Positions 18,024-39,200 of a stretch of 64,000 bases of DNA are shown here, in pieces (within the stretch, counting starts at the first letter, position 1; the number at the start of each line of letters is the position of its first letter). This stretch comes from a virus. The notes under the pieces are model-generated. The model saw only the letters and a list, made by a program, of their open reading frames with translations, had not been told where the DNA came from and searched no databases. Position numbers and translations under genes: made by a program. Where the stretch lies: the UHGV virus genome UHGV-0084588. One strand, written 5' to 3'.

Positions 18024-18677
18024 GTGGAACCGTTACGCTTAATGACCAGAACGTTGCTGATACCTATTCAAGAGCTGAAGGTTGGGCCGTTGGTCGCCTC
18101 TAATGGGGAAATTGTTGATTTCGTTAAAGAAGAAAAAATTGTTACGACCGCTTTCCAAGAGACGGTTCATCGCTATTATCATGCAGTACCCTTATCGGGC
18201 AGTTTAGATTGCCCTGGTGTGGAGGGGAGTACATCTGCGTTAATAGTGGAGCACTTAGAAAAGAAAGGGTTTGGAGTTGGGAAGGGGCAGGTTTTTGTAG
18301 ACATCTCTAAACTGAACGAGTATCAGAAAGACCTAACGTTTCAGATAAGAAGATTACTTACCCGCTACGGTCTTTTCTCGATTAATTGTAAGTTCGACGA
18401 CGTTCGGATGTTAGACCACGGTTTTACTACCGCCCTTAAAATCTATCGCGGTAAAAGATACATTCAGTTTGCTTGGTGGGTGCCGACCCTGCGAGGTGAG
18501 AGAAAAACGGTGGAAGGGTTGTACGGTTGGGCTTTATGGAGCGAAGTTCCAGTAACGAAACTCGATGCAATTATTCCACAACATCGAAACGTTCCACTTA
18601 GCAGTTTATTTACTTCTGGTGGGAACACCACGTGGGATGAATTTGTTAAAAATGTTTTATCGATAGGGGAACAATAA
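18024..18677 (+). CDS. hypothetical protein
   Basis: ORF in track from 18015; GTG at 18024 has better spacing to SD aaggag (18009-18014). Confidence 0.5.
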   Translation: MEPLRLMTRTLLIPIQELKVGPLVASNGEIVDFVKEEKIVTTAFQETVHRYYHAVPLSGSLDCPGVEGSTSALIVEHLEKKGFGVGKGQVFVDISKLNEYQKDLTFQIRRLLTRYGLFSINCKFDDVRMLDHGFTTALKIYRGKRYIQFAWWVPTLRGERKTVEGLYGWALWSEVPVTKLDAIIPQHRNVPLSSLFTSGGNTTWDEFVKNVLSIGEQ

Positions 18678-19153
18678 TGCAACAGCTAGATATCACCGAA
18701 GACAAAATCTCCGCTAAATTTCCTGAATTACGTGAATATGTGAAAGATTTAAATTCGATTCGAGAAACGCCGGTTAGAATCACTTTGGCCGTTGAAGACG
18801 ATATTACACATGGGGTTGCAATCTGGGAACCGGGGAACCTTATTTATCTGGTGGTGGCCGAGGGTTCTCGTCGCAGCGGTGTAGGTTCCTTTTTACTGAA
18901 ATACGTTCAACTCAATTCAGATCGTCAAATGGTGATGTGTCGTGTTCATCCTTCAAACATCGACGGGCTGTGTTTCTTTTCCAAAAAAGGCTTCCAAATA
19001 GACCGATGGTTTATTGCCAGTGACTCCCGTCGGTATTTTCGTATGACGAACAGTAACGTTGATTCGTCATACGCCCCGCCGGAAGAAGGATATTTGGTGG
19101 ATTTTATTGAAAACACCCCCATCTTTCTCTCTGTTGCGGATAAGATTTATTAG
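18677..19153 (+). CDS. GNAT-family N-acetyltransferase (158 aa)
   Basis: Acetyl-CoA binding-like motif RRSGVGSFLLKYV with the expected preceding beta-strand pattern. Confidence 0.5.
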   Translation: MQQLDITEDKISAKFPELREYVKDLNSIRETPVRITLAVEDDITHGVAIWEPGNLIYLVVAEGSRRSGVGSFLLKYVQLNSDRQMVMCRVHPSNIDGLCFFSKKGFQIDRWFIASDSRRYFRMTNSNVDSSYAPPEEGYLVDFIENTPIFLSVADKIY

Positions 19154-19172
19154 AAACAGTTGAGAGCCCAAA

Positions 19173-19649
19173 ATGATTCGTGTCGAATATGAGACGCGGT
19201 GCTTGGAAGGCAATAAAGCAAAAGTGTTACGTTGCGTTGAAGTTATCCCCGCACACGAGGTTGATTTATGTACAGGTCGTGTTCGGGGTGTTCCTGTAAC
19301 GATAATACAGCATAATCCTTGTTCGCAATTTAAAGAGAAGGCAACTCCAGCAGTACGTTCTCGTCGACGAGAGGACTTTTCTGATCTCCGCAAATCTTTT
19401 ACACGGCACTACCGACGCAGTAAATGGAAAGTGCTGGTATTAATTTTAGTGGATGATTTTATTAAAGACCTGGTTTGGGAGGAGGTGCTAAAAGAGCGCG
19501 GTTTTACACCCAAACCTTTCTCGTATCACTGGGAACGTTTCAAAAAGAAATATCGTGAAGCGTTATGGTTTTCGCCTAACACACGGAACATGATTCCGCG
19601 TTTAGAGTCGATGCCATGGCTACGCGATCATCTTGATGAGGTAGACTGA
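19173..19649 (+). CDS. hypothetical basic protein (158 aa)
   Basis: ORF, same strand, Arg/Lys-rich. Confidence 0.5.
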   Translation: MIRVEYETRCLEGNKAKVLRCVEVIPAHEVDLCTGRVRGVPVTIIQHNPCSQFKEKATPAVRSRRREDFSDLRKSFTRHYRRSKWKVLVLILVDDFIKDLVWEEVLKERGFTPKPFSYHWERFKKKYREALWFSPNTRNMIPRLESMPWLRDHLDEVD

Positions 19650-20041
19650 TGAAACGAACTGTCATTACCCTATTTCTAACGTTACTTTCATTTTCCGCGT
19701 TAGCGGAATTTAAACCGCACGATATTAGTCGTTTTGAACCTACGGTGCCAGGCGATAAACCTGTTGTATTTAAACCCACAGACGATCCAGTCGTTGCAGT
19801 TCAAAACGACGAGTTTGCCACGGTAAATTATGGCAAAACCGAACTGTGCCCAGCGGGTGGCTTCTATTTGGTAAATATCAAGCGTCGTACATATCAGTTT
19901 GTTGATCCTGGAAGCTGTTCTGCCAGTGTAAAGGTAACGTTAGAAACTGTACCCTATGCAAATAAAAGTATTAATATTCAACGTTTAACTTTTTATGTTG
20001 GTGATGAGATCACCGCACGCTACCCGTTATACGGGTATTAG
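19649..20041 (+). CDS. secreted protein (signal peptide)
   Basis: N-terminus MKRTVITLFLTLLSFSALA is a typical Sec signal peptide. Confidence 0.55.
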   Translation: MKRTVITLFLTLLSFSALAEFKPHDISRFEPTVPGDKPVVFKPTDDPVVAVQNDEFATVNYGKTELCPAGGFYLVNIKRRTYQFVDPGSCSASVKVTLETVPYANKSINIQRLTFYVGDEITARYPLYGY

Positions 20042-20064
20042 CGATTAACCCCCGCGGAGTTTGT

Positions 20065-20703
20065 ATGTCTTTTGTAATTGATTTTGAAGTTGGCCATAGA
20101 CAGAACTTACTCAACCTCGTCAGTTACTGTAATAGCGGCAGTGTACGTAAAAAGCTTTCGGCTGAGAAAGTGGATGTTTCTTTAATAGGCGCACCCACAC
20201 CGGAAGGTCGGTATCGGGTAAAGTTAACTAACCGCAACGATATTAACGACGCGGTGATGGTATCTTACACGAAGCTTCAATTGAACGACTTTCTTGATAT
20301 TCCCGGTAAGTATCTGGATTGGTTCGATTTCGAAAACGGCCAACCGAAAAATTACGATAAATGGGCAGAGTCCGCGAAAGCGTCAGTAGAGAAGACGTGT
20401 CAGGATCGTGGTATGGTTTTGTCACGTGCATGGGATACTGGCTCGCAGTGCCATGTTGAGTATGATGAAGATCTCGAGCGCTATGCGGTAATTTACGAAT
20501 GTGATTCGTTTATTTATAGCGCACGAAATCGATTTATTCTACCGCTTCATATTGGGCAAATTATTACGAATAAAACCCTTGACGGACTTAACTACAACAA
20601 CGAACTGAATAAACGTCCTTTAGGGAGTGTAGATGGTGAGTTGGATGTCTGGATGGGCAAAGCGTTACTCGAAACTGTTGTTTTAAGTGGTTTAGAAGAG
20701 TGA
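20065..20703 (+). CDS. hypothetical protein (212 aa)
   Basis: ORF followed by a strong terminator. Confidence 0.55.
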   Translation: MSFVIDFEVGHRQNLLNLVSYCNSGSVRKKLSAEKVDVSLIGAPTPEGRYRVKLTNRNDINDAVMVSYTKLQLNDFLDIPGKYLDWFDFENGQPKNYDKWAESAKASVEKTCQDRGMVLSRAWDTGSQCHVEYDEDLERYAVIYECDSFIYSARNRFILPLHIGQIITNKTLDGLNYNNELNKRPLGSVDGELDVWMGKALLETVVLSGLEE

Positions 20704-20716
20704 TGACGTTGGCGAT

Positions 20717-20762
20717 AGGAGAGAACCTTTTCGGGGTTCTCTCCTGCTTTCTTTTTTTTTCG
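20717..20762 (+). terminator. rho-independent terminator
   Basis: AGGAGAGAACC-loop-GGTTCTCTCCT followed by gctttcttttttttt. Confidence 0.65.
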
Positions 20763-20790
20763 CTTCACAACTTCAGTATGGAGGTGACAA

Positions 20791-21339
20791 ATGTATAAAA
20801 TTGCTATTATTGGTTCTCGAGAAACGCCCGAAGACACGATGCAAGAAATGTTGGACGTGTTGCAACGTGGATTCAAAATTCTTCGTAATAAACAGCACAA
20901 TATCGAAACCCGATCGGGGGGTTGTTATAAAGGACCAGACCAATTACAGTTTATGTTAGCACGCACTGAACCAGGTCCACACATTTGCTATTTACCTGAC
21001 GATCGTAAGTTGTGGTTACGTAAGTTACATCCGAACGTGGATTTTCGCGTTATCCCTCAAGACATTCGTTATCGTGGGATTGTGGCATCGCTTCACCCTA
21101 ATCCTGATAAGCTATCGGACATAGCTTGGGCACTGCATGGACGAAACTTAAATATTGTGTCAGGTGATTCTTTGGACGACCATGTAGACGCCGTTTATTA
21201 TTACGCCGAACACGATAAAAAGGGAAATCCAAAGGGTGGGACAGCGATGGGTGTCCGTTATGCGCAGTCGCTGAACATCCCTTGCTACTATCATGTTACC
21301 GACGCATCTAAGTGGTTAGAAGACCTACGCTTATTATGA
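20791..21339 (+). CDS. SLOG-superfamily Rossmann-like protein (DprA/DUF2493-like)
   Basis: IAIIGSRETP followed by a SGG..G.D-like motif and a C-terminal GGTA.G motif resemble the DprA/SLOG nucleotide-binding fold; weak by-eye call. Confidence 0.35.
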   Translation: MYKIAIIGSRETPEDTMQEMLDVLQRGFKILRNKQHNIETRSGGCYKGPDQLQFMLARTEPGPHICYLPDDRKLWLRKLHPNVDFRVIPQDIRYRGIVASLHPNPDKLSDIAWALHGRNLNIVSGDSLDDHVDAVYYYAEHDKKGNPKGGTAMGVRYAQSLNIPCYYHVTDASKWLEDLRLL

Positions 21340-21389: not shown

Positions 21390-22523
21390 ATGTCAACATT
21401 AGATTCCGATTTAGAAGTCCTTTGCGATGACTACGATCGATTGGTCGCGTTAGAATCGCTTAATGTTAAAGACAATTATCCGACGGTTGTCGCTATCCGA
21501 AAACGGTGGGCTTTAGATGATGTCCACGTTGCGCTGGAGTCTGCAGCGATGATGGAACGCGCGCAATTTGTTGCGGACACCGAGCCTTACGCAGGGGTAG
21601 GTAAAGCGGTCGCACGCGCGACAGGCAGAGCGGTTAAAGGAGTTGGACGCGTTGCTGGAAAAGCAGCGGTGGCAGGAGCCAAAGCGTCTGGAAAAGTCGC
21701 AGGTAAACATTCTAAGCAGCTGGCGTTACGTTTTATCGACTTCGCGGAAGCCGCCGGTAAAGAAGTTATTAATGAACTGAAAGAAGCGACGTCCAAAGCA
21801 TCGTCGTTAGAGCGCAAGCTACAGAAGTTAGAAGCACGTTTAAGTTTACTCGGTATCAAGGACACTTTAAAACCGGTTGACTGTGACACGGGAAGTTGGA
21901 CAACCAAAGTTTGTTTAGAAGACAAACCTAACGTAAAAGCATGTATTGAGTTCAGTAAGAACCTGAGCGCAATGGATGCGATGGTCAACGAGTATACCGT
22001 TAAAACACGTACGTTAATCGGTAAGAGCAAGAAAGTTACCGAAAGCGGTTTGGAGAAAGTGGGTCGGTCAACGAACTGGGCGATTAAACGAAGCGCAGGG
22101 CTGTTCGGTATTATCGATCCGTTTAAAACGGTGAAAGCATATCCGTGGCCAGGTAACGTGGTGGTCGTTGAACACGACAGCGGTAAGATTGAGTGGGCGA
22201 TTGCCCGTGACGGTGATTTTGGTCACACGATCAAATCTCTGAACTTGCACGAAATCGGTTCAGCTCTTGATGCTGTTAGAAACATTATCCGGGCGTTACG
22301 TCAGCGTGGTACGAAACGACGTAGCGTTGGGTATACAGGAATTTATGATGAAATTCAACGTATGCGTAAGGAACTTAAGTCGCTTGAAGGGCGGGAGTTA
22401 CGCGACGCTACCGTACGTTATAAAAACGCACTGCGTTTAGAAGATGCGTTTACTACCTCGTTAGTGCGCGTTGCGGAAGGATTACTGGAATGGTGCAGGT
22501 TGTCGCTGATTGAGGTTAAATAA
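21390..22523 (+). CDS. hypothetical protein with Ala/Gly/Lys-rich repeat region (377 aa)
   Basis: ORF with internal low-complexity segment (GVGKAVARATGRAVKGVGRVAGKAAVAGAKASGKVAGK). Confidence 0.55.
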   Translation: MSTLDSDLEVLCDDYDRLVALESLNVKDNYPTVVAIRKRWALDDVHVALESAAMMERAQFVADTEPYAGVGKAVARATGRAVKGVGRVAGKAAVAGAKASGKVAGKHSKQLALRFIDFAEAAGKEVINELKEATSKASSLERKLQKLEARLSLLGIKDTLKPVDCDTGSWTTKVCLEDKPNVKACIEFSKNLSAMDAMVNEYTVKTRTLIGKSKKVTESGLEKVGRSTNWAIKRSAGLFGIIDPFKTVKAYPWPGNVVVVEHDSGKIEWAIARDGDFGHTIKSLNLHEIGSALDAVRNIIRALRQRGTKRRSVGYTGIYDEIQRMRKELKSLEGRELRDATVRYKNALRLEDAFTTSLVRVAEGLLEWCRLSLIEVK

Positions 22524-22990
22524 TGCGTATCACTATTATTCTCAAACCCGACAGTAAATACGGAAAGTTATATGGCGACCAGGTACTCAAACTGCACAAC
22601 ATGTTGTTCGCAGAAGAGAAGGTTCGTATTAGTCAGTTAACCGGTCGCGACACGTTCAACCCAATTGAGCACCTAGAAGAGATTTGGCCTCAAGATTATC
22701 TCTGTGCGTGTGCGGTGGACGACAACGAACAACTTTTGGGTTTCATGACGTTTTCAATGGGTTCTTGCTCAAAGGACACATTTGTTTATATTGGGAACTA
22801 CTACGTGATTCCCGAAGCGCGTTCTCAAGGAGTAGGACGTGCGCTTATGGACAAAGTCCGTGAATACGGAAAGTCCAAAGGTTGTGGTTGGATGAGTTTG
22901 GATGTGTTAGACAACAACGTTAAAGCTATCTCCTTGTATGAGAAAATGGGATTCCGTACCGAATGCAGGGAAATGATAAAGGAAATCTAA
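22523..22990 (+). CDS. GNAT-family N-acetyltransferase (155 aa)
   Basis: Motif ARSQGVGRALMDKV..G matches the GNAT acetyl-CoA binding loop; start overlaps the upstream stop (TAATG). Confidence 0.65.
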   Translation: MRITIILKPDSKYGKLYGDQVLKLHNMLFAEEKVRISQLTGRDTFNPIEHLEEIWPQDYLCACAVDDNEQLLGFMTFSMGSCSKDTFVYIGNYYVIPEARSQGVGRALMDKVREYGKSKGCGWMSLDVLDNNVKAISLYEKMGFRTECREMIKEI

Positions 22991-24614: not shown

Positions 24615-24636
24615 TGCGTAAAAAGGTAAAACTATA

Positions 24637-25260
24637 ATGCTTAAGACAGTATCTATTGATGGTCCTGATTTTTCTGGGAAATCAACGTTGTGTAAAATGG
24701 TAAAAGCGATGTTGGAGTCCGCAGGATTAAAAGTGTGTATTCGGAACCATCCGACGTCTGAAACCGAGGCGGGCATTCGTGCACGTAGCTTGGTTGTACA
24801 GTCTGCTTCGAAAACAAAAATTGCTGAAGCAATGTGTGATGATTTCCTTCACACGTTGGACCATGTTGTTGACGAGTACGATGTCGTTATTTTCGATCGC
24901 TTCTGTCCTTCAACGATCGTTTATCAGGGGACAGATGGTAAGGATGTGGTTTTCCAACGTAAACTAACTCGTCATTTCCACACTCCTGACCTTTATGTTT
25001 GGACAGATGTTGATTACCCAACAGCGTTAGCGCGATTTAAGAAACGCGTAGAAGAACAAGGTAAGAATTGGGATGATGAGGTACTTACTGTTAAGTATCT
25101 AAAGGACAACCAATGTTGGGATGGCTTACGCGACCATTATCGTTTCGCACATCACATCTTAACAGAAGGCGGTTGTCTTCACACGTTATTACCGGTAACG
25201 CAGAATGACGATTACCGTTTGAAAGCTGCAGAGATTGTTACGCATATTTTAGCAAACTAA
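24637..25260 (+). CDS. P-loop nucleotide kinase, thymidylate/dNMP kinase-like
   Basis: N-terminal P-loop IDGPDFSGKST and a DRF..ST.VYQG motif reminiscent of the thymidylate kinase DR(Y/F) motif. Confidence 0.5.
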   Translation: MLKTVSIDGPDFSGKSTLCKMVKAMLESAGLKVCIRNHPTSETEAGIRARSLVVQSASKTKIAEAMCDDFLHTLDHVVDEYDVVIFDRFCPSTIVYQGTDGKDVVFQRKLTRHFHTPDLYVWTDVDYPTALARFKKRVEEQGKNWDDEVLTVKYLKDNQCWDGLRDHYRFAHHILTEGGCLHTLLPVTQNDDYRLKAAEIVTHILAN

Positions 25261-25268
25261 CCGCTTAG

Positions 25269-25304
25269 GTACCACCCAACGGTGGTGCCTATATTTTATT
25301 TTTT
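25269..25304 (+). terminator. rho-independent terminator, immediately upstream of a promoter-like element
   Basis: GGTACCACC-caac-GGTGGTGCC followed by tatattttatttttt. Confidence 0.55.
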
Positions 25305-25350
25305 CTCAGATATATATTACTTAAGTGAGAGTTACAATTAACTCTTTACA
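25305..25350 (+). promoter_or_regulatory. conserved promoter-like element with downstream inverted repeat
   Basis: CTCAGATATATATTACttaaGTGAGAGTT...AACTCT, 45-75 nt upstream of the HTH gene. Confidence 0.45.
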
Positions 25351-25379
25351 CTGAGTTGTTAACCTAAAGGAGTATTACC

Positions 25380-25739
25380 ATGGCTTACAATCACAATTCC
25401 ATCGTTCTGACAAAACGTAAATTCGGTCTTCACTTGTCTTACGTAATTCGTCATTTGACCACGAAAGATATTACTCAGCGTGAGCTTGCCCAGCTTGCGA
25501 AAGTTTCACAACCCGTTATCTCATCTATTAAGAACGATCACTCAGAACGTTTAAGCTTACCGATTATGATGAAAGTTGCTGATGCGATTCGTTTGAAGTA
25601 TCAGATTAGTTTTAATTCCGTTAAGGGTCGTTGCTCAGTAACTGTCCACGTAGAGTCCGCATTGGACTACGTTGCAAACACCTCCATTAAACGCACCACG
25701 AAGAATGTGCGTTTTATCACTAACACCGCAGCACACTAA
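25380..25739 (+). CDS. XRE-family helix-turn-helix DNA-binding protein
   Basis: ITQRELAQLAKVSQPVISSIKN matches the Cro/C1-type HTH pattern; a promoter-like element lies directly upstream. Confidence 0.5.
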   Translation: MAYNHNSIVLTKRKFGLHLSYVIRHLTTKDITQRELAQLAKVSQPVISSIKNDHSERLSLPIMMKVADAIRLKYQISFNSVKGRCSVTVHVESALDYVANTSIKRTTKNVRFITNTAAH

Positions 25740-25760
25740 TCAACCTGAAGGAGTATTATC

Positions 25761-26432
25761 ATGCCACCGAAAATTGGTAAAACCGTAATTGAAGAAACTG
25801 TAAAGAACGAGACTAAAGCCAACGAAGTTCAACATGCTGCGAAGGTTGAACTTTTACCCTGCGTTAATGAAATACTCGGGGTGAAATTCTTAACTTTTAG
25901 CCCGTATACTGACCTGGTTTTCGATTTTTATCAAGACCAGCCTTTCAACCTATTCACACTTGTCTGCACTTATAATGGCGATGTTCTGGCAGTTGCTCCT
26001 GGTCTTAATAGAGACAAGTTACTTACAGGTACGGTTATTACTGAAATTCTTCTGCGGTTAATGCATAAGTTTGAAGGACCTGAACTTGACAAAATTGCTG
26101 TTAAGTTAGCTGACTTACTAATCAATGCTGTCACCTGGTTGAGTTTTAACCCTTCTATCTATTTCCATTTCAATACAAATATTCTTCACGCCGTAACAGA
26201 CGATGGTAAAAAGTATCGCATCTTAATTAAGGGTGGGGTGCAACAACCTTTGTTCTCTAGACAAAACTGCCATATTAAGTTTTCGCCTGACTTGGTAGAA
26301 GTTTACGGCCAGCGAGTAGCGGCTGGCCACTACGATACCCATCTCAGATTTTTCAATTACCTGTATGAAAAATTAGGGAAAGCTGGCTTGACACCCAATC
26401 TTGCTTTCACAAGTTCTGCCCCTTTTGCGTGA
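25761..26432 (+). CDS. hypothetical protein (223 aa)
   Basis: ORF with SD gaaggag; terminator downstream. Confidence 0.55.
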   Translation: MPPKIGKTVIEETVKNETKANEVQHAAKVELLPCVNEILGVKFLTFSPYTDLVFDFYQDQPFNLFTLVCTYNGDVLAVAPGLNRDKLLTGTVITEILLRLMHKFEGPELDKIAVKLADLLINAVTWLSFNPSIYFHFNTNILHAVTDDGKKYRILIKGGVQQPLFSRQNCHIKFSPDLVEVYGQRVAAGHYDTHLRFFNYLYEKLGKAGLTPNLAFTSSAPFA

Positions 26433-26444
26433 TGTTTAATAATT

Positions 26445-26478
26445 GGGGAACTTCGGTTCCCCTTTCTTTTTTGTTTTT
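26445..26478 (+). terminator. rho-independent terminator
   Basis: GGGGAAC-ttcg-GTTCCCC followed by tttcttttttgttttt. Confidence 0.65.
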
Positions 26479-26526
26479 ACAGCTTTAGCGTATTGTTTTG
26501 AGACGACCTTTTAAGGAGTAATTAAC

Positions 26527-27525
26527 ATGGCTTTTAGGAAGACTATAGAACGTACCGCCACGGATTTAACAGTAGGTCGGTTGGCACGTAGAGATATTCG
26601 CAACCCTCAACTTCAGGCTTGTTTATCGGGTCCTAACGGTGCGGTGATTCGTGAGGCGTTGTGCAATAGTGAACTGAATACGTTCTCTTTACAAAAAGGA
26701 AAAACAATTCAAGGGTTTATCATCACAAAACACATTTACGGCGACCCAACGTTACACTGCTTGTATATGCATGAGATTGTACCGGGTTGTTTGAACAAAC
26801 TGAACCTACTACTGGTACTCGACTATACCGGTTTTACGTACCTTAACCGAATTGCCAGTGGTGTAGAAGAAATCGCTGAGCTTAATGACCTGGGATTTAG
26901 ACACGCCCACTCTACGTACCGTTTAGGCACACGTAAGTTACTGGATGTCGCACTACCAACGAACGTGAAGAACATCTCTGGCGATTTTTATAAAGAGTTA
27001 ACTGCCACACAACGCGAACAGCTTATGTTGCTTTTGGGTACGAGCGTCGTTGAAAACATCAACGCTGACCCTGTGGGCCGCACACGACAAATCATGCCAC
27101 AAGTCGAAACGTTGGTGGAATTAGTACGTCACGTCAACCACCACACCTACGTTTGGATGGACGGCAACGATGTTGTGGGCGTGGTGCAAGTTAAATTGCG
27201 TAATCTTAACGAGTGTGAATTAAAAGCCATTGCGGTGAGTGAAACACACCGGGGGCGTGGTATCGGACGGACTTTGTTATACCGTGCTCTGCAGATTGCA
27301 TCGACAACAGCGGCACCATTGGAGATAGGGTGTTTCAATAACAACCCTGCATTTAGACACCTGGTCGTCGAATTATTTAAATTTCGGCCCTACGATTACG
27401 AATTTGTTTTAGTGCGCGACGATGACGTCGTCAGTTGGGAGCGTCGGAAAAATCGTGTCGAGTTGGTGTTAGGCGACGAAGTGTCATCGTTACAAGGCGG
27501 ATATAATGCGGAAACCAATTATTAA
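26527..27525 (+). CDS. protein with C-terminal GNAT acetyltransferase domain (332 aa)
   Basis: C-terminal AIAVSETHRGRGIGRTLLYRALQIA matches the GNAT acetyl-CoA binding motif; N-terminal half unassigned. Confidence 0.55.
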   Translation: MAFRKTIERTATDLTVGRLARRDIRNPQLQACLSGPNGAVIREALCNSELNTFSLQKGKTIQGFIITKHIYGDPTLHCLYMHEIVPGCLNKLNLLLVLDYTGFTYLNRIASGVEEIAELNDLGFRHAHSTYRLGTRKLLDVALPTNVKNISGDFYKELTATQREQLMLLLGTSVVENINADPVGRTRQIMPQVETLVELVRHVNHHTYVWMDGNDVVGVVQVKLRNLNECELKAIAVSETHRGRGIGRTLLYRALQIASTTAAPLEIGCFNNNPAFRHLVVELFKFRPYDYEFVLVRDDDVVSWERRKNRVELVLGDEVSSLQGGYNAETNY

Positions 27526-28321
27526 GTGGATGGGTGGGAAAACACGTGTTTTAGGGGAATTACAAAAGGTCTTACCTAAACGTACAACCTTTGTAGAACC
27601 GTTTGTGGGTGCAGGGTCTGTTTTCCTAAATACGAACTACAGCCGGTATATTTTATCGGATTCTAACCCTGATTTGATACGCTTACTTTGCGTTGCGCGT
27701 GAACAGCCTGAAGAACTGATCGCTGCGTCGCAGCCGTTGTTCTTAGACGGTAATACCACTGTAAAGTATATGGAGCGTCGTGAGCTGTTTAATAGCGGTA
27801 AAACAATGTCAGAAGTTGAACGGGCAGCGATGTTTTTATACTTAATGCGTCACGGTTATAACGGGATGTGTCGTTATAACGGTAGCGGTGGGTTCAATGT
27901 TCCGTTTGGACGTTACCCGAATGGGGTTTATTATCCGTTAGAAGAAATTCGGGATTGGGCTAAACGTTGCGCAGAAGTCGACTATCTGGAGATTGTTTGT
28001 GAGGACTTTCGTTCCGTATTAGCACGGACGCCTGAGGATGCTGTGATTTATGCTGATCCTCCGTATATTCCGTTATCGGATACCGCGAAACATGCGCAAT
28101 ACCACCGTAAAGAATTCTCACAAACGGATCATCGAGAATTAGCCAAGTTACTACAGCAGCAGGTGGAACGTGGCAACAGTGTCGTGTTGTCAAATGCAGA
28201 CACCCTGCTCACCCGAGAAATTTATTACGGTTTTGAGTGGCGCAGTATTGAGGTCGGTCGCTATATGGGTGCGTCTGGCGCTGCTCGGAAAACGGTGACT
28301 GAATTACTGGGAGTGCTCTAA
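27506..28321 (+). CDS. dam: DNA adenine methyltransferase (Dam-type, GATC N6-adenine MTase)
   Basis: Near collinear with E. coli Dam as I recall it: KWMGGK, VEPFVGAGSVFLNT..SRYIL, FLYLMRHGYNGMCRYN, catalytic DPPY, TREIY. Confidence 0.95.
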   Translation: MRKPIIKWMGGKTRVLGELQKVLPKRTTFVEPFVGAGSVFLNTNYSRYILSDSNPDLIRLLCVAREQPEELIAASQPLFLDGNTTVKYMERRELFNSGKTMSEVERAAMFLYLMRHGYNGMCRYNGSGGFNVPFGRYPNGVYYPLEEIRDWAKRCAEVDYLEIVCEDFRSVLARTPEDAVIYADPPYIPLSDTAKHAQYHRKEFSQTDHRELAKLLQQQVERGNSVVLSNADTLLTREIYYGFEWRSIEVGRYMGASGAARKTVTELLGVL

Positions 28322-29094
28322 TGCGCATAGTGGATATTCACGATTATCGTAATGACCATTTAGCAATTGGTGTCGACGGGAAAATGGTTTCACTAACCCG
28401 TGTACGGAAAGGGTTACTGGAAAAGGACGTCATTCGCGAGTCTGAAGATCCGACCTTTATCATTCTTTCGAACACGAATCAGCTACAAGGAATCTTCTCC
28501 GGTCGTGTCGATGGTAAGTTTTTCTACATGTCGGCAATCGTTGTGTTTGCGAAGAAGAAAATTAATTTCGCACAACTCAAACGTTTGTTAAAAGTGGAGA
28601 TGTTTGATGTCACATACCCTGCCAACGACCTAAAACGTCGTGACCAGTTAATGGTGTATTTGGGTATGCAGCCGACGTCTATCGACTATGACCTGACGTT
28701 TACTGAAGAACCTGAAGTTCGCACCGATTTACCTGATGTAGATGATATTGAATCTCTAACGTTAGAAGAAACGTTTACGATCCCTAAGGTGGTTAATGTC
28801 AGTTTAGATACATACTGTCTGGGATTGTTAGCTATTGGGGCTGCTGAAGGGCTGTGCTGTCGTAAAGACGGTAAAGTTGAAGGTATCTTAGTCTATTCGA
28901 AAATCAACGAAAAGACGTTTGCAACCGAAGGTTTCTTTTATAACGACTGTACTTACGGGATTGCGCTCTTGACCACATACTACCGTATTGCGTATTTAAA
29001 GGGTGCAACCGTGCGTCTTACTTTTCCATACTCAGCACCTCCAGCAATGTCTGGTGTTGAGGTAGAAGCATTAACTGGCCATTTTATCTTTTAA
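28321..29094 (+). CDS. hypothetical protein (257 aa)
   Basis: ORF start overlaps the Dam stop (TAATG). Confidence 0.55.
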   Translation: MRIVDIHDYRNDHLAIGVDGKMVSLTRVRKGLLEKDVIRESEDPTFIILSNTNQLQGIFSGRVDGKFFYMSAIVVFAKKKINFAQLKRLLKVEMFDVTYPANDLKRRDQLMVYLGMQPTSIDYDLTFTEEPEVRTDLPDVDDIESLTLEETFTIPKVVNVSLDTYCLGLLAIGAAEGLCCRKDGKVEGILVYSKINEKTFATEGFFYNDCTYGIALLTTYYRIAYLKGATVRLTFPYSAPPAMSGVEVEALTGHFIF

Positions 29095-29103
29095 GGACAT
29101 TGA

Positions 29104-29331
29104 ATGGAAATCAAGCGTATTGTAACCAAAGACAAAAAGATTACTTATGTCGCAGGTGATAACGAATTCTCGGCGGTTATTAATGACGAGAACGTGCTGA
29201 TTATCGGTTATCCGGGTAAAGTTATTACCCGCAGTCATCAGCGCGTGATTGACAAGCTTATCGCCAAAGCAAAAGCGCGCGACGGTGTTGGTTCAGTACA
29301 AACCCATACCGGGTTAACGTTGGCTCTCTAG
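29104..29331 (+). CDS. hypothetical small protein (75 aa)
   Basis: Short ORF in operon context. Confidence 0.4.
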   Translation: MEIKRIVTKDKKITYVAGDNEFSAVINDENVLIIGYPGKVITRSHQRVIDKLIAKAKARDGVGSVQTHTGLTLAL

Positions 29332-29369
29332 CCAGCAGGTAATATGACCTCTTAACTGGAGACTTAGAG

Positions 29370-29876
29370 ATGAAAGAGACTCTGGATTTTAATCAGCTGG
29401 AGCAGCACGATTTTGATCTCGGTGTTCGCGACTTAGAAACTGACTACGAAACACGTTGTAAAGAATTCTTTAATCGCTACGGGCAATTGATTACCGGGGC
29501 ATCTGAAGACACCGAATTCTCGTTAGACGATTTCGAAAAGATTCTGTCTTGCTTTATCACCGACAGCTTAGCGAAACAGGCATTGCTGGTAGAACAGAAC
29601 CTGCAAATGGTGGAGCCTACAGATGCTCACGCTGTGCTAAAAGAATCCATTATTCCGAACGACGAAATTATGGATGCGGTAGCAGGTATTCGTGGTACGT
29701 TCGACACAGCCGTAGAAGACTATGCCGAACAGCTTCGTGAGTCTGGGCTAACGTTGTGTGCGCCTGCGGGCGAACAGCTACCTTCTGAAGAAGAAACGGA
29801 AGAAGCACGTAATCGCTTAGCGCGTTATGTGATTACTTCTGTGTTAGTAGACGATCGCGAAGAAAACGTACTGTAA
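29370..29876 (+). CDS. highly acidic protein (168 aa)
   Basis: Asp/Glu-rich throughout; terminator downstream. Confidence 0.5.
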   Translation: MKETLDFNQLEQHDFDLGVRDLETDYETRCKEFFNRYGQLITGASEDTEFSLDDFEKILSCFITDSLAKQALLVEQNLQMVEPTDAHAVLKESIIPNDEIMDAVAGIRGTFDTAVEDYAEQLRESGLTLCAPAGEQLPSEEETEEARNRLARYVITSVLVDDREENVL

Positions 29877-29881
29877 ACCTT

Positions 29882-29918
29882 CCCTCTCTCCGTTTGGAGA
29901 GAGGGAGTATTTATTTTT
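29882..29918 (+). terminator. rho-independent terminator (hairpin copy 1)
   Basis: CCCTCTCTCC-gttt-GGAGAGAGGG followed by agtatttattttt; same hairpin as 30929-30952. Confidence 0.65.
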
Positions 29919-29974
29919 ACGCTTTCGCGTCTAATTATGCACACGTAAACAAAATTAATTGAGGAACAGCTTAA

Positions 29975-30292
29975 ATGTGGTTAAGTGCGATTCACCGTGA
30001 TTTACCAAAACAAGAAATGGTATTTACCGTTGGGGAACCAGCAACTGTAGTAGGTGTTGCTAAGTTCGAAAGGGTGGAAGAAGGTCAATTCGTCGTAGTA
30101 GACGACAACGAGAACGAATTCATGTTGTTCCACCCTGAGGTCGATACCTCTGAAATCTGTGAGGGTTCTCTTCTGTTGTCCTGGCAAAACCCTGAAACCG
30201 GTGCATGGATGTGGTGTGTTGCTAAACCGACAAATGAAGCCGGAACCGCATACGTGTTTGGGGAAACTTATGTCGAGCCAAAACCACACTAA
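29975..30292 (+). CDS. hypothetical protein (105 aa)
   Basis: ORF after a terminator. Confidence 0.45.
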   Translation: MWLSAIHRDLPKQEMVFTVGEPATVVGVAKFERVEEGQFVVVDDNENEFMLFHPEVDTSEICEGSLLLSWQNPETGAWMWCVAKPTNEAGTAYVFGETYVEPKPH

Positions 30293-30578
30293 TACCGACG
30301 AAACGAATTTACAGCGCTTGCAACGGGCACTAACTGCACCGCTAGGTGGCGAGATTCACGAACGTTGGGTAATTGCGAGGGTGGTAGAAATTGACTATTC
30401 TCAGGATCAGTTGCTGTTAAATAACTGCTCGTCGAACGTGCCTTTCACGTTACCGCGTGCTGTATTCCGCCTTACCCCCAACGTTGATGAAATACTGACT
30501 ATTGACAGGAAACTTCTATCGATAGAACTTCAGCATTTCCCGCTACCTGGTAAGTCGGTTAATATTGCGCTGTGTTAA
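30270..30578 (+). CDS. hypothetical protein (about 102 aa)
   Basis: Track ORF 30159-30578 trimmed to the in-frame ATG at 30270, which overlaps the upstream stop by 23 nt. Confidence 0.4.
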   Translation: MSSQNHTNTDETNLQRLQRALTAPLGGEIHERWVIARVVEIDYSQDQLLLNNCSSNVPFTLPRAVFRLTPNVDEILTIDRKLLSIELQHFPLPGKSVNIALC

Positions 30579-30597
30579 TGACAGTCTAAAAAACTTA

Positions 30598-30632
30598 AGA
30601 TATATTTCATCTATGTGAGAATTCTCACTTAA
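30598..30632 (+). promoter_or_regulatory. promoter-like AT-rich motif plus palindrome (variant copy)
   Basis: GATATATTTCATctatGTGAGAattCTCACTTAAC upstream of 30652. Confidence 0.35.
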
Positions 30633-30651
30633 CTAAATGGAGTAATCTAAA

Positions 30652-30921
30652 ATGGCTAAGATTTACATTGTTGAGAAACGTGCGGGTAATGTTCTTTCTT
30701 ATTACGAAGAAGGTAAGCCTGAGAAAATCAAAACACTCAAACTCGACGGGTACGATGTGAAGAGTTTACGTAAGGGTGTGAAGATTACCTTTAAAGGTCT
30801 GGTTCGCGCAGGTAACCTACACATTGTTAAGACTGACGGTACGATGGCTGCGTTAGCACCTGTCAGTGCTGCGAAAACGACAGCAGGTCGTGGCTGCTAC
30901 GGTAGCAGTCGTAAGATTTAA
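30652..30921 (+). CDS. hypothetical basic small protein (89 aa)
   Basis: ORF preceded by a promoter-like element and SD aatggag; terminator downstream. Confidence 0.45.
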   Translation: MAKIYIVEKRAGNVLSYYEEGKPEKIKTLKLDGYDVKSLRKGVKITFKGLVRAGNLHIVKTDGTMAALAPVSAAKTTAGRGCYGSSRKI

Positions 30922-30928
30922 GCAGTGC

Positions 30929-30968
30929 CCCTCTCTCCGTTTGGAGAGAGGGTACTTTTATTTTTCTT
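30929..30968 (+). terminator. rho-independent terminator (hairpin copy 2)
   Basis: CCCTCTCTCC-gttt-GGAGAGAGGG followed by tacttttatttttcttc. Confidence 0.65.
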
Positions 30969-30979
30969 CGAGGTGTGTG

Positions 30980-31468
30980 ATGACAACGGTATTAGTAACA
31001 AAGGATTACATTTTAGCTGACCGACTTGTGGATTATGGTGGCACGGTTAAAGAATTGCCCAAACTGCACAAACACAAAAACAAGTTTGTTTTCTACACGG
31101 GAGAACGTGTACTGGACACCGAATTTTGGAAAATATCGATTACCGCTGCTATAGAAGAATATTTAGACGAGGATAAACGTCAGAAAGTTGAGCCCTTGCT
31201 TGCAGATCTTTTCGAAAAAGAGCGAATATTCGATCAAATCGTCATTTTTACGGCTAGAGAAACACATTGGTTGACATTAGTGGCAGATAAGTTTAAAACG
31301 TTTGTAATAAATAAAAATGCGGTTTGGGCAACGGGTTCTGGTGGAGGATTTGCGCGGGCTGCTTGGGCAACTGGAATATCAGAAAAGAAAATTATGCCAT
31401 TGGTAGGTTCTATTGATCCGTCTAGCTCGACCACTTACGACTTGTTTTACAGGAAGGGTTTACGATGA
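30980..31468 (+). CDS. hypothetical protein (about 162 aa)
   Basis: Track ORF 30866-31468 trimmed to the ATG at 30980, downstream of the 30929-30968 terminator. Confidence 0.5.
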   Translation: MTTVLVTKDYILADRLVDYGGTVKELPKLHKHKNKFVFYTGERVLDTEFWKISITAAIEEYLDEDKRQKVEPLLADLFEKERIFDQIVIFTARETHWLTLVADKFKTFVINKNAVWATGSGGGFARAAWATGISEKKIMPLVGSIDPSSSTTYDLFYRKGLR

Positions 31469-36008: not shown

Positions 36009-36212
36009 GCTTGACGCTTTTACTGGTAATGGAGGCCAAAGTAAACTTTTATCAAGACTTAGTAAACCCAGATCATGAGAACGCGGAATTGGACATCACT
36101 TTCACGTTAGAAGTTGATGGATTAAAACCAGTATAATAATCCGCTTATAAAAATGTTGGGGAGGTGCTTTACCTCCCCAGATCTTTTAGCTCCAGATAGA
36201 GAATTAAATATC

Positions 36213-39200
36213 ATGGCTAAAGCGGTAAAGAAAATACGTTTACACGATTTGCGTCCATACACCGGGGATATCGGTGAAGGCGTTTTACTTTTTTCGAAAG
36301 ACGAAAAAGATTATAAGTTACCCGTCCGCGAAATCGTTGCGGATATTGACACCGTCAGAAACGCGGTTGCTGATGCACAAACAGCTGCAGCCAAATCGCA
36401 GCAGTCTGCAACAGAAGCTACGCAAGCAAAAAATTTAGCGGAAACCGCGAAGCAACAAACTGACACGTTAGCTTCCACAGTCAGTGAGCAAGCGGGAACC
36501 GTTGCCACTAAAACTGCTGAAGTTAACAAAAAACACGCTGAAGTTTTAGCAGCGAAAACTGCCGTAGATACTGTTTCACAATCAGTAAATGAGAAGGCTC
36601 AAGCTGTCGCCACATCCGAACAATCTGTGACGGCTACGGCGGCTGATGTAACTAAGAAAGCAGAAACGGTTACGCAACAGGCCGGACAAGTTCAACAGAC
36701 GGCTACCAGCGTTGAAAATACCGCAGCTTCAGTCGAGGCCAGTAAAGGTGCAGTGGAGAAAATCGCTGCACAGGTCGCGAAAGATAAAGAAAGCTCAGAA
36801 GGGGCAGCTACGCGTTCGGAGTCAGCTGCCCTACGTGCGGAGAAAATCGCTGCCCAAGGATTAGTTGACGCTACTACAACCGGTAAAGGTATTGTTAAAC
36901 TTAACGATACCCTGACAAGCGATTCCGTGACTGAGGCTGCTACACCGTCCACGGTTAAACAGCTGAACGACGATTTACAGTTAAAAGCCAATAAACATTC
37001 GCCGAATTTTACGGGTAACCCGACATCCCCAAAACCGCCGAAGGACTCGAATGACACGAGTATCTCCACAACGTCCTGGGTGCGTGACGCGATTGCGGAA
37101 TTGGTTGGTTCTTCACCCGAGACGCTAAATACCTTAGCGGAATTAGCTGAGGCGTTAGGTAATGACCCTAACTTCGCAACAACGATCACTGAGGAACTTG
37201 CGCAGAAACAACCTCTCAGCCCGTTACTCACCGCTATTGCCGCAGTCACCACAGCGGCAAACAAACTCATGTATTTCACCGGCAGTAATAAAGTCGGATT
37301 AACAGATTTTACAGAAACGGCCAGATCCTTGTTAGCGAAAGGGTCAACTGCGGATATCATTAACTTCCTGGGTTTGAAACCCACCGTTGATAAAGCAAAC
37401 GGCGCATTACAGAAAAACTCTAACGGTGCTGATATCCCAAATAAAGAAACTTTTGCTCGCAACATCGGCCTATCTCCTGATACCTATCTGCGTTTCCGTG
37501 GCGAAATGCCTGTAGATGCTGATATTAACACATTTGCTCCAGATGCTAATTACACAGGAACATGGTCCAAGTCGACATCAACCAATGCGTCGATGGCAAA
37601 ACACTTCCCAGAAGACGGTGCAGTCGGTTATCTGGAAGTGTATAAAGCGGGCAACTACAGTGGAGCGCAACGTTTTACCTGCCGTAATGGTAACGTGTAC
37701 AACCGTATGTTGTCAGGTGCGTGGAACGGAACTAATGGCCCGTGGTCACCGTGGAGAATGGTAACTACCGGTGTACGTCCGTTATCTACATCGATCGATC
37801 TGAACTCCTTAGGCGGCGCTGAGCACATGGGTAACTGGCGTAACTCGTCCAGTTCGTTAGCGGTGTTCGACAGACATTATCCTGAAGAGGGCGGTAATGC
37901 GCAAGGCGTATTAGAAGTCATGGAAGGCGGTCTTTATGGACGGTTGCAACGATACACCACACGACATGGTACGATGTATGTCCGTGGTTTGACTGCGACT
38001 TGGGATTCTTCTAATCCGCAGTGGGAAGATTGGATTCAGGTTGGGTATCAGGTAGACGGTGCCTACTATAAGGGTAGCTTTAACGACTTAACTAAACCGG
38101 GCCGCTTTAGTGTTACCGGTGAGGCTACAGACAGTCCGTTAACAGACTCTGCTGGCGCAACCTTGCTAGGTGTTTGCGAAGTTACCTTACGCTTAGACGG
38201 TTCAGGCGTTGAACAAAATTATACCACATACGGTACAGGCGCAACTTCGAAAGGTCGCAAGTTCCAACGAATTCGTACAGGAAACGCCTGGAGCGAATGG
38301 CGAGAGATTTTCACATCCTATTCACTCCCGTTGACTTTAGGGATCGGTGGGGTTGCTGCTAAGGTCGATCCGTTAGACTGGCAAACATTCGACTTCGTTC
38401 CTGGCCAGATGATAAGTACACCGTTGAATACCATGAAAAATATTCCTGCGGGAATGGATTGGGGTGTTATCGACGGTAACTTGGTCACTATTCTTGTAGG
38501 GGCGTCGGAGGACACCGGTACTGGCCGGAGTATGTTGGTCTGGCGTGGTACAGTGTCTACTGCTAACTATCGCTTCTTTGCTGTTCGCGTCGCTGGTGAA
38601 AAGGGTAAACGTACTATTACTAGCCGCCAGATGCCCGTATTGAATGCAGCGCATACGTGGGCAGAAAAACAGACCTTTGCAAAAGGGTTATCGGGCGAAT
38701 TGACAGGTAATGCGTCAACGGCAACAAAACTGAAAACAGCCCGTTTAATCGGCGGTGTAAGTTTCGACGGTAGCGGCGACATTAGCCTCCCTGGTGTGAA
38801 CCAACAGGGTAATCAAAACACCTCTGGGAACGCGGGAACCGCAACCAAATTACAAACGGCTCGAAACATCAACGGTGTGAAATTTGATGGGTCTAGAGAC
38901 ATCAATATCAACACGTTGGTAGGACGTGGACGTGTTACTGCACTGTCTGGTTCAAACAAAGGTACACCCGGTATTCAGATGTACGAAGTTTACAATAACG
39001 GTTATCCAACCGCTTATGGTAACTTACTGCATTTGGGTGGCGCTACTGCGCTAGGTGAAGGCGAGCTGTTAATCGGATGGCCGGGGACGAGCGGTGCGCA
39101 CGCGCCTGTTTATATTCGTAGTCGACGTGATACGGCTGATGCACCGTGGTCAGATTGGGCACAAGTTTACACTGCCCGTGACAGCATTCCTGGCGTAAAT

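Follow-up and report, generated by a model that had tools for sequence, protein, structure and literature searches.

The window analysed in this work, a 64,000-nucleotide stretch of the uncultured virus genome UHGV-0084588 (about 222 kb in full), carries a dam gene whose product is, in our judgement, likely to be an active, vertically inherited orphan Dam, which would methylate the phage's own genome as a GATC self-mark against methylation-sensitive nucleases. In this lineage, presence of Dam is paired with avoidance of GATC: the pairing is the only unexpected feature, and the single lead that merits pursuit. The gene itself was already known, being annotated in every cultured relative since SPN3US, with near-identical copies named "DNA adenine methylase" at NCBI; some public copies are mislabelled as "Cytosine specific methyltransferase".

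The gene lies within a five-gene unit, composed of a GNAT gene, dam, a GNAT-like gene and two small ORFs, with terminator-like hairpins at both ends:

26445..26472, + strand: terminator-like hairpin GGGGAACTTCGGTTCCCC followed by a T-run, delimiting the unit upstream (hairpin scan)
26527..27525, + strand: upstream gene, 332 aa, with a C-terminal GNAT acetyltransferase domain (PF00583, phrog_8663)
27506..28321, stop codon included, + strand: dam, predicted orphan Dam-family (D12 class, alpha group) N6-adenine DNA methyltransferase (ORF, PF02086, TIGR00571, 2g1p, AF2 model, PADLOC)
28321..29094, + strand: downstream gene, 257 aa, tentatively of GNAT-like fold (predicted structure)
29104-29331, + strand: small gene, 75 aa (ORF)
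29370-29876, + strand: small gene, 168 aa (ORF)
29880..29917, + strand: terminator-like hairpin with a 12-bp stem, followed by a T-run, delimiting the unit downstream (hairpin scan)

The dam frame is intact from ATG to TAA (27506-28321, + strand) and encodes a product of 271 aa. A sequence-only reading had described a Dam gene at this location, nearly collinear with E. coli Dam, and the description was borne out: phmmer aligned residues 3-269 to residues 5-266 of the E. coli enzyme (2g1p; E=1.7e-64, 98% of the length), while BLASTP found 115 identities over 268 positions (43%), with 4 gaps accounting for 7 positions in all, a similarity far beyond chance. The two proteins are collinear, at a moderate overall identity. 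The BLASTP comparison suggested by the same reading gives matches to both enterobacterial and phage Dams, 43% identical for E. coli Dam and 65-73% for the jumbo-phage orthologues.

Scores lie well above the curated thresholds for both Pfam PF02086 (E=6.4e-57; 193.6 bits, the cut-off being 22, with coverage of profile positions 1-248 out of 253) and NCBIfam TIGR00571 "dam" (252.3 bits against 114.85); the family motifs are present, and the regions follow the order of the alpha group (AdoMet region, target-recognition region, catalytic region). The top PADLOC model is "orphan methyltransferase" (E=1.7e-85), and Type II methyltransferase models also match (E=9.4e-79). The NCBIfam equivalog for the chromosomal enzyme (NF008152 / PRK10904) is scored at 255.3 bits, below its cut-off of 441, so that the product cannot be equated with chromosomal Dam: orthology to the chromosomal Dam of Enterobacterales is ruled out by this score, by position in the tree and by location in a phage genome. 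Family models, motifs, GATC-contact residues and predicted fold together lend strong in silico support to the earlier proposal of a GATC-methylating Dam, here encoded by a genuine and intact gene.

The AF2 model (pLDDT 88.8, pTM 0.88) predicts a Dam fold, formed by a Rossmann-like catalytic domain and a helical DNA-binding domain with a beta-hairpin. Foldseek matched it to E. coli Dam (E=1e-28) with TM scores of 0.81-0.83 when normalised on the query and 0.85-0.91 when normalised on the target; values were 0.79 for DpnM and about 0.70 for T4 Dam. These top three structural matches are all GATC enzymes, although they share only 20-40% identity with the dam product.

The four blocks quoted in the sequence-only reading as shared with E. 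coli Dam are all present in the translation: VEPFVGAGSVFLNT..SRYIL at residues 30-50, FLYLMRHGYNGMCRYN at residues 110-125, DPPY at 184-187 and TREIY at 236-240. The functional elements may be located as follows:

27524..27541, + strand: N-terminal motif K7-W8-M-G10-G11-K12 (K7 corresponds to EcoDam K9)
27596..27622, + strand: motif I / AdoMet-binding loop, E31-P-F-V-G-A-G-S-V39 (alignment with E. coli Dam)
27659-27661, + strand: D52, acidic residue of motif II (invariant in the alignment)
27854..27916, + strand: DNA-recognition beta-hairpin, G117-Y137 (column-by-column conservation)
28055..28066, + strand: catalytic motif IV, D184-P-P-Y187, encoded by gat cct ccg tat (invariant in 122 sequences)

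K7, W8, G10 and G11 are present in every sequence covering these columns of the 122-sequence alignment, and K12 recurs in no fewer than 90% of 30 aligned sequences. Retention of this N-terminus supports the start codon at 27506; the annotated N-termini of the ChrisDB, Wellington and SPFM3 orthologues coincide with it. The dam annotations of two reference genomes have truncated start codons. E31, P32, F33, G35 and D52 are invariant across the 122 sequences, and the stretch of the AdoMet loop aligns with an identical VEPFVGAGSVFLNT in E. coli Dam.

The roles of the GATC-contacting residues of EcoDam have been established experimentally: K9 recognises the first G:C pair, Y119 intercalates and R124 contacts the Gua of the fourth base pair (PMC4417163). 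All the GATC readers of that enzyme (K9, Y119, N120, L122, R124, P134 and Y138) have equivalents in the phage protein, those within the hairpin being Y118, N119, M121, R123, P133 and Y137, respectively; the only replacement, of L122 by M121, is conservative, and Met occupies this position in 7 of 28 sequences of the jumbo-phage clade and in 13 of 94 others. N119 and R123 are invariant (122/122), P133 is found in 28/28 jumbo-clade sequences and 92/94 others, and the K, N, R and P contact residues are invariant in the 28 jumbo-phage homologues.

As to the neighbourhood, dam overlaps both adjoining genes: the stop of the upstream GNAT gene overlaps the dam start by 20 nt, and the ATG of the downstream gene overlaps the dam stop (TAATG). 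The upstream protein matches PF00583 over residues 199-278 (E=2.5e-12), with weak matches to GNAT proteins in PDB, and recurs as SPN3US gp104, ChrisDB gp120 and Wellington gp132. The downstream 257-aa protein can be called GNAT-like only tentatively, because of the low confidence of its model (pLDDT 64). The two small genes (29104..29876), which precede the downstream hairpin, match phrog_7896 and phrog_8221. A single phrog_9941-type gene follows dam in the window, versus two or three in relatives, where the second and third such genes, only 8-15% identical to the ORF of the window, were left out of the profile.

No restriction-enzyme partner or defence gene was found near dam, in a search covering six flanking ORFs by Pfam, PHROGs, PADLOC, PDB sequences and the fold of the downstream ORF. 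Judged by this gene content, dam is a solitary (orphan) methyltransferase, and not part of a Type II restriction-modification system of the DpnII/MboI kind. A scan for sigma-70 promoters gave 12 sites, against 11.7 in shuffled sequence; no excess is to be expected for a phage that would rely on RNA polymerases of its own. Both flanking terminator-like hairpins are followed by a 16-nt motif, TTTAC(A)GCTTT(A/C)GCGT, of which the window has two good copies alone, too few for it to be called a promoter.

The dam product is orthologous to SPN3US gp105 and Asesino gp121, and its identity to these and to the phiEaH2, Stratton and SPFM orthologues is 65-73%. In the literature searched, gp105 and gp121 are mentioned at the annotation level alone; matches to "gp105" are most likely to proteins from other phages. 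In the tree, jumbo-phage Dams form a separate group (bootstrap 93.5%), within which the Dam of the window falls in a subclade with those of Seoulvirus and Erskinevirus (99%); the group of E. coli Dam excludes it. The gene occupies a conserved syntenic position in five genera: position and neighbours are the same in Seoulvirus, Machinavirus, Wellingtonvirus and the present phage, and in Erskinevirus (Asesino) the position is kept but the upstream GNAT gene is missing. Recent capture of a host dam was rejected, because of this conserved synteny and of the separate, well-supported clade. As judged from tree and synteny, dam is a vertically inherited accessory gene of a PhuZ-less clade of nucleus-forming jumbo phages (Chimalliviridae). 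All catalytic residues are kept in the 28 jumbo-phage homologues, despite divergence down to about 50% identity; this, together with the intact frame, points to purifying selection.

By its gene content and synteny, the phage is an SPN3US/Asesino-like, predicted nucleus-forming jumbo phage of Enterobacteriaceae, probably belonging to the proposed genus "Bapsvirus". The window is syntenic with SPN3US genes from 73 onward and with Asesino; among its products are a divergent DnaB, a major capsid protein of the phiKZ type (E=1.4e-208) and phiKZ internal head proteins. Megablast of positions 26500-29100 against 50,697 phage records gave no match, so that the phage is not a sequenced isolate and relatives of this region are found at the protein level only. 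Phage nuclei have been demonstrated for Asesino and SPN3US (PMC13282480, PMC11724907), and chimallin is encoded by all 299 Seoul-like genomes surveyed (bioRxiv 10.1101/2024.12.31.630880); the chimallin gene was not identified within the window, and its Asesino counterpart, gp039, maps upstream of the window-equivalent region.

The window resembles only jumbo phages of Erwinia, Salmonella, E. coli, Proteus and Cronobacter. NCBI assemblies labelled E. coli, Shigella flexneri and Salmonella enterica carry members of the 90%-identity cluster of this Dam on contigs of about 225 kb, and a Shigella sonnei assembly contains the downstream 257-aa gene. The enterobacterial host range previously read from the similarity to E. 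coli Dam is thus right as a conclusion, by virtue of these contigs and of the resemblance to jumbo phages, but the argument was weak: jumbo-phage Dams fall in a clade of their own, and the protein is about equally distant (43-49% identity) from the Dams of Enterobacterales and from those of Rheinheimera, Shewanella and Alkalimonas. The hosts themselves are Dam+, in line with the conservation of this enzyme in gamma-proteobacteria (PMC4417163).

Among known systems, the closest are the "DNA adenine methylase" orthologues of SPN3US (gp105), Asesino (gp121), the Erwinia phages phiEaH2 and Stratton and the SPFM phages of Salmonella, which have the same length, belong to the same nucleus-forming clade and share the location, after a thymidylate kinase - HTH regulator - GNAT block and before phrog_9941 genes; the present phage is a different, uncultured one, with structural genes about 77% identical in nucleotide sequence. 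E. coli Dam (2g1p, 4rtj; NF008152) shares family, domain order, fold, AdoMet-binding and DPPY motifs and GATC contacts, whereas the window enzyme is phage-borne, has Met for L122 and, by position, would have no role in the replication and repair circuitry of the host chromosome. Klebsiella phage ST16-OXA48phi5.4 and the "phage DNA adenine methylase" of Pectobacterium atrosepticum are phage orphan Dams with 45-49% identity; these temperate-phage enzymes differ in belonging to another clade, often exceed the window protein in length (280-321 aa) and are encoded by small phages replicating in the cytoplasm.

T4 Dam (1yfj, 1q0s), the orphan GATC adenine methyltransferase of a virulent enterobacterial phage, has the same fold but is distant in sequence (E=1.3e-10, 20-22% identity). 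Among jumbo phages, Dams of the T4-like type are the most frequent (PMC7824862); the dam product, unlike them, is of the E. coli-Dam-like type. Finally, the phage GATC methyltransferase Dmt of P1 resembles Dam in its N-terminal part (38.8% identity over residues 3-123), but is a larger fusion protein, and no GATC cluster similar to P1 pac is present in the window. P1 shows that the function of a phage Dam may lie in packaging instead of defence (PMC12707154).

GATC is the site specifically avoided by the Dam+ lineage. The window has an observed/expected ratio of 0.57-0.61, with z=-6.2 relative to synonymous shuffles, and in four other Dam+ relatives the ratio is 0.21-0.49. In contrast, the Dam-less Goslar and RAY, hosted by E. 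coli and Erwinia amylovora, contain 4.8-6.8 GATC per kb, 2 to 7 times the density of the Dam+ clade, and show no comparably strong avoidance; the association between Dam and GATC avoidance is drawn from one Dam+ clade against these two outgroup genomes. Within the window, GATC density is 0.85 per kb in intergenic DNA versus 2.48 per kb in coding DNA, with no intergenic enrichment. The 149 sites of the 64-kb window are not significantly clustered: the tightest groups of 3-6 sites are within random expectation (P = 0.11-0.77), and only that of 8 sites reaches a marginal value (P = 0.04, with no correction for the five tests).

Taken by analogy with the solved E. coli enzyme, the phage Dam would bind AdoMet through the EPFVGAGS loop and D52, track along DNA and then insert the 117-137 beta-hairpin into the major groove. 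R123 would read the guanine opposite the C of GATC, M121 and P133 the third base pair, K7 and Y137 the first one, while Y118 would intercalate; the adenine would then be flipped into the DPPY pocket and methylated at N6, yielding G6mATC. Expression would be that of a five-gene unit with overlapping stop and start codons. The replicating phage genome would be methylated by the phage enzyme probably inside the nucleus, out of reach of host Dam, where both the nuclear localisation of the former and the exclusion of the latter are assumptions. Progeny DNA would so leave the cell with a GATC mark matching that of the Dam+ enterobacterial hosts, which would blunt methylation-sensitive GATC nucleases (DpnII/MboI-type, MutH) acting on exposed DNA; the GATC avoidance of the lineage may represent a second layer against the same pressure.

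Evasion of GATC-sensitive restriction, also put forward in the sequence-only reading, is plausible, and has already been proposed for SPFM phages (PMC6614189). A protective role is made doubtful, in turn, by several features. The phage nucleus of the closest cultured relatives excludes restriction enzymes (PMC13282480, PMC12908238), and the vesicle of early infection similarly shields DNA from them (PMC12908238); hosts are Dam+; and the lineage avoids GATC, which would be unnecessary if methylation gave full protection. Since the Dam-less, GATC-rich Goslar and RAY infect the same hosts, GATC methylation is not generally needed by nucleus-forming phages here.

A possible, if somewhat unlikely, alternative is that Dam serves a signal internal to the phage (packaging, replication timing or gene expression), placed on the few retained GATC sites, rather than counteracting restriction. 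P1 offers a precedent, since its pac must be Dam-methylated and its own methyltransferase is essential in dam- hosts, and what T4 Dam does in vivo has yet to be settled (PMC12707154). Maintenance of dam across five genera, though the nucleus already protects DNA, and a GATC depletion strong enough to fit retention of functional sites alone, are both compatible with such a signal; the absence of significant clustering among the 149 sites, within 64 kb of about 222 kb, and their rarity in intergenic DNA argue against it.

It is improbable that the enzyme acts mainly in the cytoplasm, on host DNA and processes, where over-methylation would disturb mismatch repair, SeqA/oriC sequestration or Dam-regulated genes in the course of a prolonged, carrier-like infection. 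Host DNA is left undegraded by Asesino (PMC11724907), and genomes of Seoulvirus-like and "Bapsvirus" phages persist in bacterial isolates, suggesting carrier-like states (PMC12768965; bioRxiv 10.1101/2024.12.31.630880), as would fit the presence of members of the Dam cluster in many isolate assemblies. Hosts being already Dam+, however, extra Dam would produce little beyond faster remethylation, and the GATC avoidance of the phage genome itself would be left unexplained.

A non-GATC or relaxed specificity is very improbable: an identity to E. coli Dam of no more than 43%, Met (M121) in place of L122 and a score under the equivalog cut-off speak in its favour, but base-contacting residues are all conserved or conservatively replaced, Met being found in other members; moreover, the EcoDam, DpnM and T4Dam structural matches are all GATC enzymes, and it is GATC that the lineage avoids. 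Hardly credible, finally, is that dam is half of a restriction-modification system, to which the Type II PADLOC matches might point but for the lack of any nuclease-like neighbour, or an inactive relic, given its intact frame and conserved catalytic residues.

Orphan Dam genes are common in phages, and the present one adds little by itself, beyond a slight value for the annotation of relatives, as regards mislabelled copies and truncated starts. The lead is a comparative one: a lineage whose close relatives hide their DNA within a nucleus has kept dam over deep divergence and has purged GATC, while sister lineages on the same hosts do neither. This contrast opens the questions of whether host DNA-modifying enzymes are excluded from the phage nucleus, of what still attacks Dam+ jumbo phages at GATC, and of whether methylation is tied to the reported carrier-like persistence.

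Joining these observations, we advance, as a rather unlikely conjecture, that Dam goes with GATC avoidance in Seoulvirus, Erskinevirus, Machinavirus, Wellingtonvirus and the "Bapsvirus"-like phage for one of two reasons: either the nucleus excludes host Dam, so that a lineage in long, carrier-like association with Dam+/MutH+ hosts would supply its own mark and minimise GATC, or Dam would signal at few sites. Either reading, if true, would tie the phage nucleus to epigenetic self-marking in a new way.

The open reading frame at 27506-28321 (+) runs exactly from ATG to TAA in the ORF listing of the window and encodes a protein of 271 aa, whose translation holds all the blocks quoted in the sequence-only reading (VEPFVGAGSVFLNT..SRYIL, FLYLMRHGYNGMCRYN, DPPY and TREIY). 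There it had been called a Dam methyltransferase nearly collinear with E. coli Dam (EcoDam). Among all PDB chains, the top phmmer match is the EcoDam structure 2g1p (E=1.7e-64), with query residues 3-269 aligned to EcoDam 5-266; BLASTP against the aligned EcoDam stretch gives 115/268 identities (43%), with four gaps totalling seven positions. The description as nearly collinear is therefore correct, at an overall identity that is moderate, the long identical runs coinciding with the catalytic motif, the recognition hairpin and the AdoMet loop. The DPPY codons, GAT CCT CCG TAT, contain a GATC (28055-28058), one of three within dam.

The enzyme name holds as well, by family models, residues and fold. 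The Pfam family PF02086 (D12-class N6-adenine methyltransferase) matches the protein end to end (E=6.4e-57), and the score against TIGR00571 'dam' (NCBIfam), 252 bits, lies above the cut-off of 114.85; NF008152, the equivalog for enterobacterial chromosomal Dam, is not passed (255 bits, under the cut-off of 441). By these models, the protein belongs to the Dam family without being the housekeeping orthologue. Aligned with EcoDam and 120 homologues, it keeps the functionally defined residues K7 (EcoDam K9), Y118 (Y119), N119 (N120), M121 (L122), R123 (R124), P133 (P134), Y137 (Y138), D52 and D184-P-P-Y187. For EcoDam, experiments assign the reading of the first base pair to K9 and Y138, contacts with the third to L122 and P134, reading of the guanine in the fourth to R124, and intercalation to Y119 (PMC4417163). 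An AlphaFold2 model built from 30 sequences is confident (pLDDT 88.8, pTM 0.88) and superposes on EcoDam with TM 0.81-0.91; DpnM and T4 Dam, GATC enzymes like EcoDam, give 0.79 and about 0.70. Family models, kept residues and model similarity thus strongly suggest a predicted GATC specificity, and the enzymology can be read, by analogy, from EcoDam. Some public copies in the cluster of the window's Dam protein, the metagenome-assembled Caudoviricetes records DAG37541.1 and DAY66627.1, carry the name 'Cytosine specific methyltransferase', which conflicts both with DPPY as an N6-adenine motif and with membership of the Dam family.

The window is part of a phiKZ-like jumbo phage. Among its products are a divergent DnaB, phiKZ internal head proteins and a major capsid protein of phiKZ type (E=1.4e-208); at the DNA level, the structural genes share about 77% identity with those of Asesino (an Erwinia phage) and SPN3US (a Salmonella phage), and gene order tracks SPN3US from gene 73 onward. 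The clade to which these phages belong corresponds to the chimalliviruses without PhuZ of Prichard et al. (PMC11724907). At the protein level, Dam is 72.5% identical to the Asesino homologue, 67.5% to SPN3US gp105, and 50-53% to those of ChrisDB/Caitlin (Machinavirus) and Wellington/Kwan. In SPN3US, SPFM3, ChrisDB and Wellington, dam has the same position as in the window: it follows a GNAT-domain gene of about 320-332 aa and precedes one to three phrog_9941 genes of about 270 aa; Asesino, in contrast, lacks the GNAT neighbour. By neighbour-joining, jumbo-phage Dams cluster apart from EcoDam and from the many Enterobacterales (pro)phage Dams (bootstrap 93.5% of 200; 99% for the subclade of the window, Seoulvirus and Erskinevirus). 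Fixed position and separate grouping thus mark dam as an old accessory gene that has passed down vertically within the clade. Nor is the gene new: ever since the SPN3US genome, orthologues have carried the annotation DNA adenine methylase, as do near-identical proteins in NCBI.

Two deposited starts are probably too far downstream: that of SPN3US gp105 (JN641803.1; 28876 instead of 28852 in the compared stretch L007) drops 8 residues and that of Asesino gp121 (KX397364.2; 6088 instead of 6001 in L001) drops 29, in both cases with loss of the conserved K-W-x-G-G-K motif, to which EcoDam K9, a reader of the first base pair, belongs. GTG and ATG codons are available in frame from which the N-terminus would be complete, as it is in the annotated SPFM3, ChrisDB and Wellington proteins.

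The upstream gene runs 20 nt into dam, whose own stop is overlapped by the ATG of the next gene (TAATG). The five-gene unit (GNAT-domain protein, dam, a 257-aa protein, a 75-aa and a 168-aa ORF) is bounded by:

26445-26462: terminator-like hairpin with T-run
29880-29907: terminator-like hairpin with T-run

Just 3' of both hairpins lies a 16-nt motif, TTTAC(A)GCTTT(A/C)GCGT (26476-26491 and 29915-29930, +), whose only good copies in the window are these two; it is possibly a phage-RNA-polymerase promoter element, or a coincidence. The conserved module spans 26527-29094 in the window, 27847-31305 in the SPN3US stretch, 26815-30963 in ChrisDB and 24625-28066 in Wellington; the upstream protein (320-332 aa) carries its GNAT domain C-terminally, and for the window's copy of the downstream proteins (about 260-270 aa), structure prediction tentatively gives a GNAT-like fold. 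Another GNAT gene stands alone at 22523-22990. We know of no functional link between these acetyltransferases and Dam. No nuclease or PADLOC defence model matched among the dam neighbours, and the top PADLOC model for Dam itself is 'orphan methyltransferase'.

Elsewhere in the window, two adjacent radical-SAM genes (PF04055, 4Fe-4S cluster domains; 56877-59118, -) are shared with Asesino (gp180 and gp181). Downstream of dam, a 1500-aa tail-fibre-like protein (36153-40655, +) differs in length, 1480 against 1532 aa, between contigs that are otherwise near-identical (L003-L006, about 18300-20816), and on related contigs it features Phage_fiber_2, Gp34_trimer and Peptidase_S74 domains; it is likely a host-range determinant, variable within the phage population.

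An enterobacterial host had been proposed from Dam similarity. The conclusion is right on other grounds; Dam similarity is a poor argument for it, since the nearest cellular Dams (43-49% identity) come not just from Enterobacterales but also from Rheinheimera, Shewanella and Alkalimonas. At least 20 metagenome contigs of about 221-224 kb encode the identical protein, the 90%-identity cluster has members on contigs of about 225 kb from NCBI assemblies whose labels are Escherichia coli, Shigella flexneri and Salmonella enterica, and the gene downstream of dam is also found in a Shigella sonnei assembly. Near-identical contigs of about 221-228 kb come from metagenomes, some with cohort-style sample names, and from isolate assemblies that bear the labels E. 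coli, Shigella and Salmonella. The phage appears to be uncultured, and fits as a candidate member of the proposed genus 'Bapsvirus' (about 220-226 kb, Chimalliviridae, no PhuZ, synteny with Seoulvirus), which has been recovered from assemblies of Salmonella, E. coli and Shigella (PMC12768965). This occurrence agrees with published accounts in which virulent jumbo phages persist in isolates of bacteria (PMC12768965; bioRxiv 10.1101/2024.12.31.630880).

The window contains 149 GATC sites, against 244 expected by base composition (O/E 0.61) and 263 by a second-order Markov model (0.57); among palindromic tetramers, CTAG alone is lower. Synonymous-codon shuffles within 78 genes predict 206 ± 10 sites, against 144 observed (z=-6.2), so that neither protein sequence nor codon usage accounts for the deficit. 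Depletion is stronger in the other Dam-carrying members of the clade; in 50-kb samples of the four, no palindromic tetramer is avoided more than GATC.

GATC content of four Dam-carrying phages (sampled length; O/E mononucleotide; O/E Markov; GATC per kb)
SPN3US: 50 kb; 0.49; 0.41; 1.92
ChrisDB: 50 kb; 0.34; 0.28; 1.32
Asesino: 62.7 kb; 0.25; 0.21; 0.96
Wellington: 50 kb; 0.26; 0.22; 1.02

Strong avoidance is absent from Goslar (E. coli; 4.8 GATC per kb, O/E 1.24 and 0.69) and RAY (Erwinia amylovora; 6.8 per kb, 1.75 and 0.97), nucleus-forming phages of the same hosts, whose full genomes yielded no Dam homologue (best HMM E-values 0.45 and 0.14). GATC avoidance in enterobacterial phages is classical, as quoted in PMC5014478 (McClelland 1984; Deschavanne and Radman 1991; see also PMC6286503); what is unexpected is that, within one virus family, such avoidance goes together with a phage-encoded Dam. 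The two co-occur in a single clade, so that the five Dam-carrying genomes, four of them sampled over 50-63 kb, represent a single evolutionary observation.

The sequence-only interpretation, which also raised evasion of restriction by methylation, is supported in part. Such evasion has been suggested for jumbo phages generally. It has been suggested for the SPFM phages too (PMC6614189), but this role, unproven for the present Dam, is complicated by the phage-nucleus lifestyle: Asesino and SPN3US build a chimallin nucleus (PMC13282480; PMC11724907), and such nuclei keep out restriction enzymes and CRISPR nucleases (PMC12908238). According to Iyer et al., DNA-modification systems are few in nucleus-forming phages, and the phages that do have them might put them to use right after their DNA enters the cell (PMC7824862). 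Alternatively, methylation may serve as a packaging, replication or regulatory signal, with a precedent in P1 (PMC12707154), or Dam might act on the undegraded host chromosome. We prefer a reading in which the nucleus would also keep out host Dam, so that the phage would provide its own enzyme; we infer that phage Dam may stand in for the excluded one, and would give progeny DNA the GATC mark of its Dam+ hosts. The gene itself is of low interest; the association of Dam with GATC avoidance is a modest lead, which can be tested cheaply.
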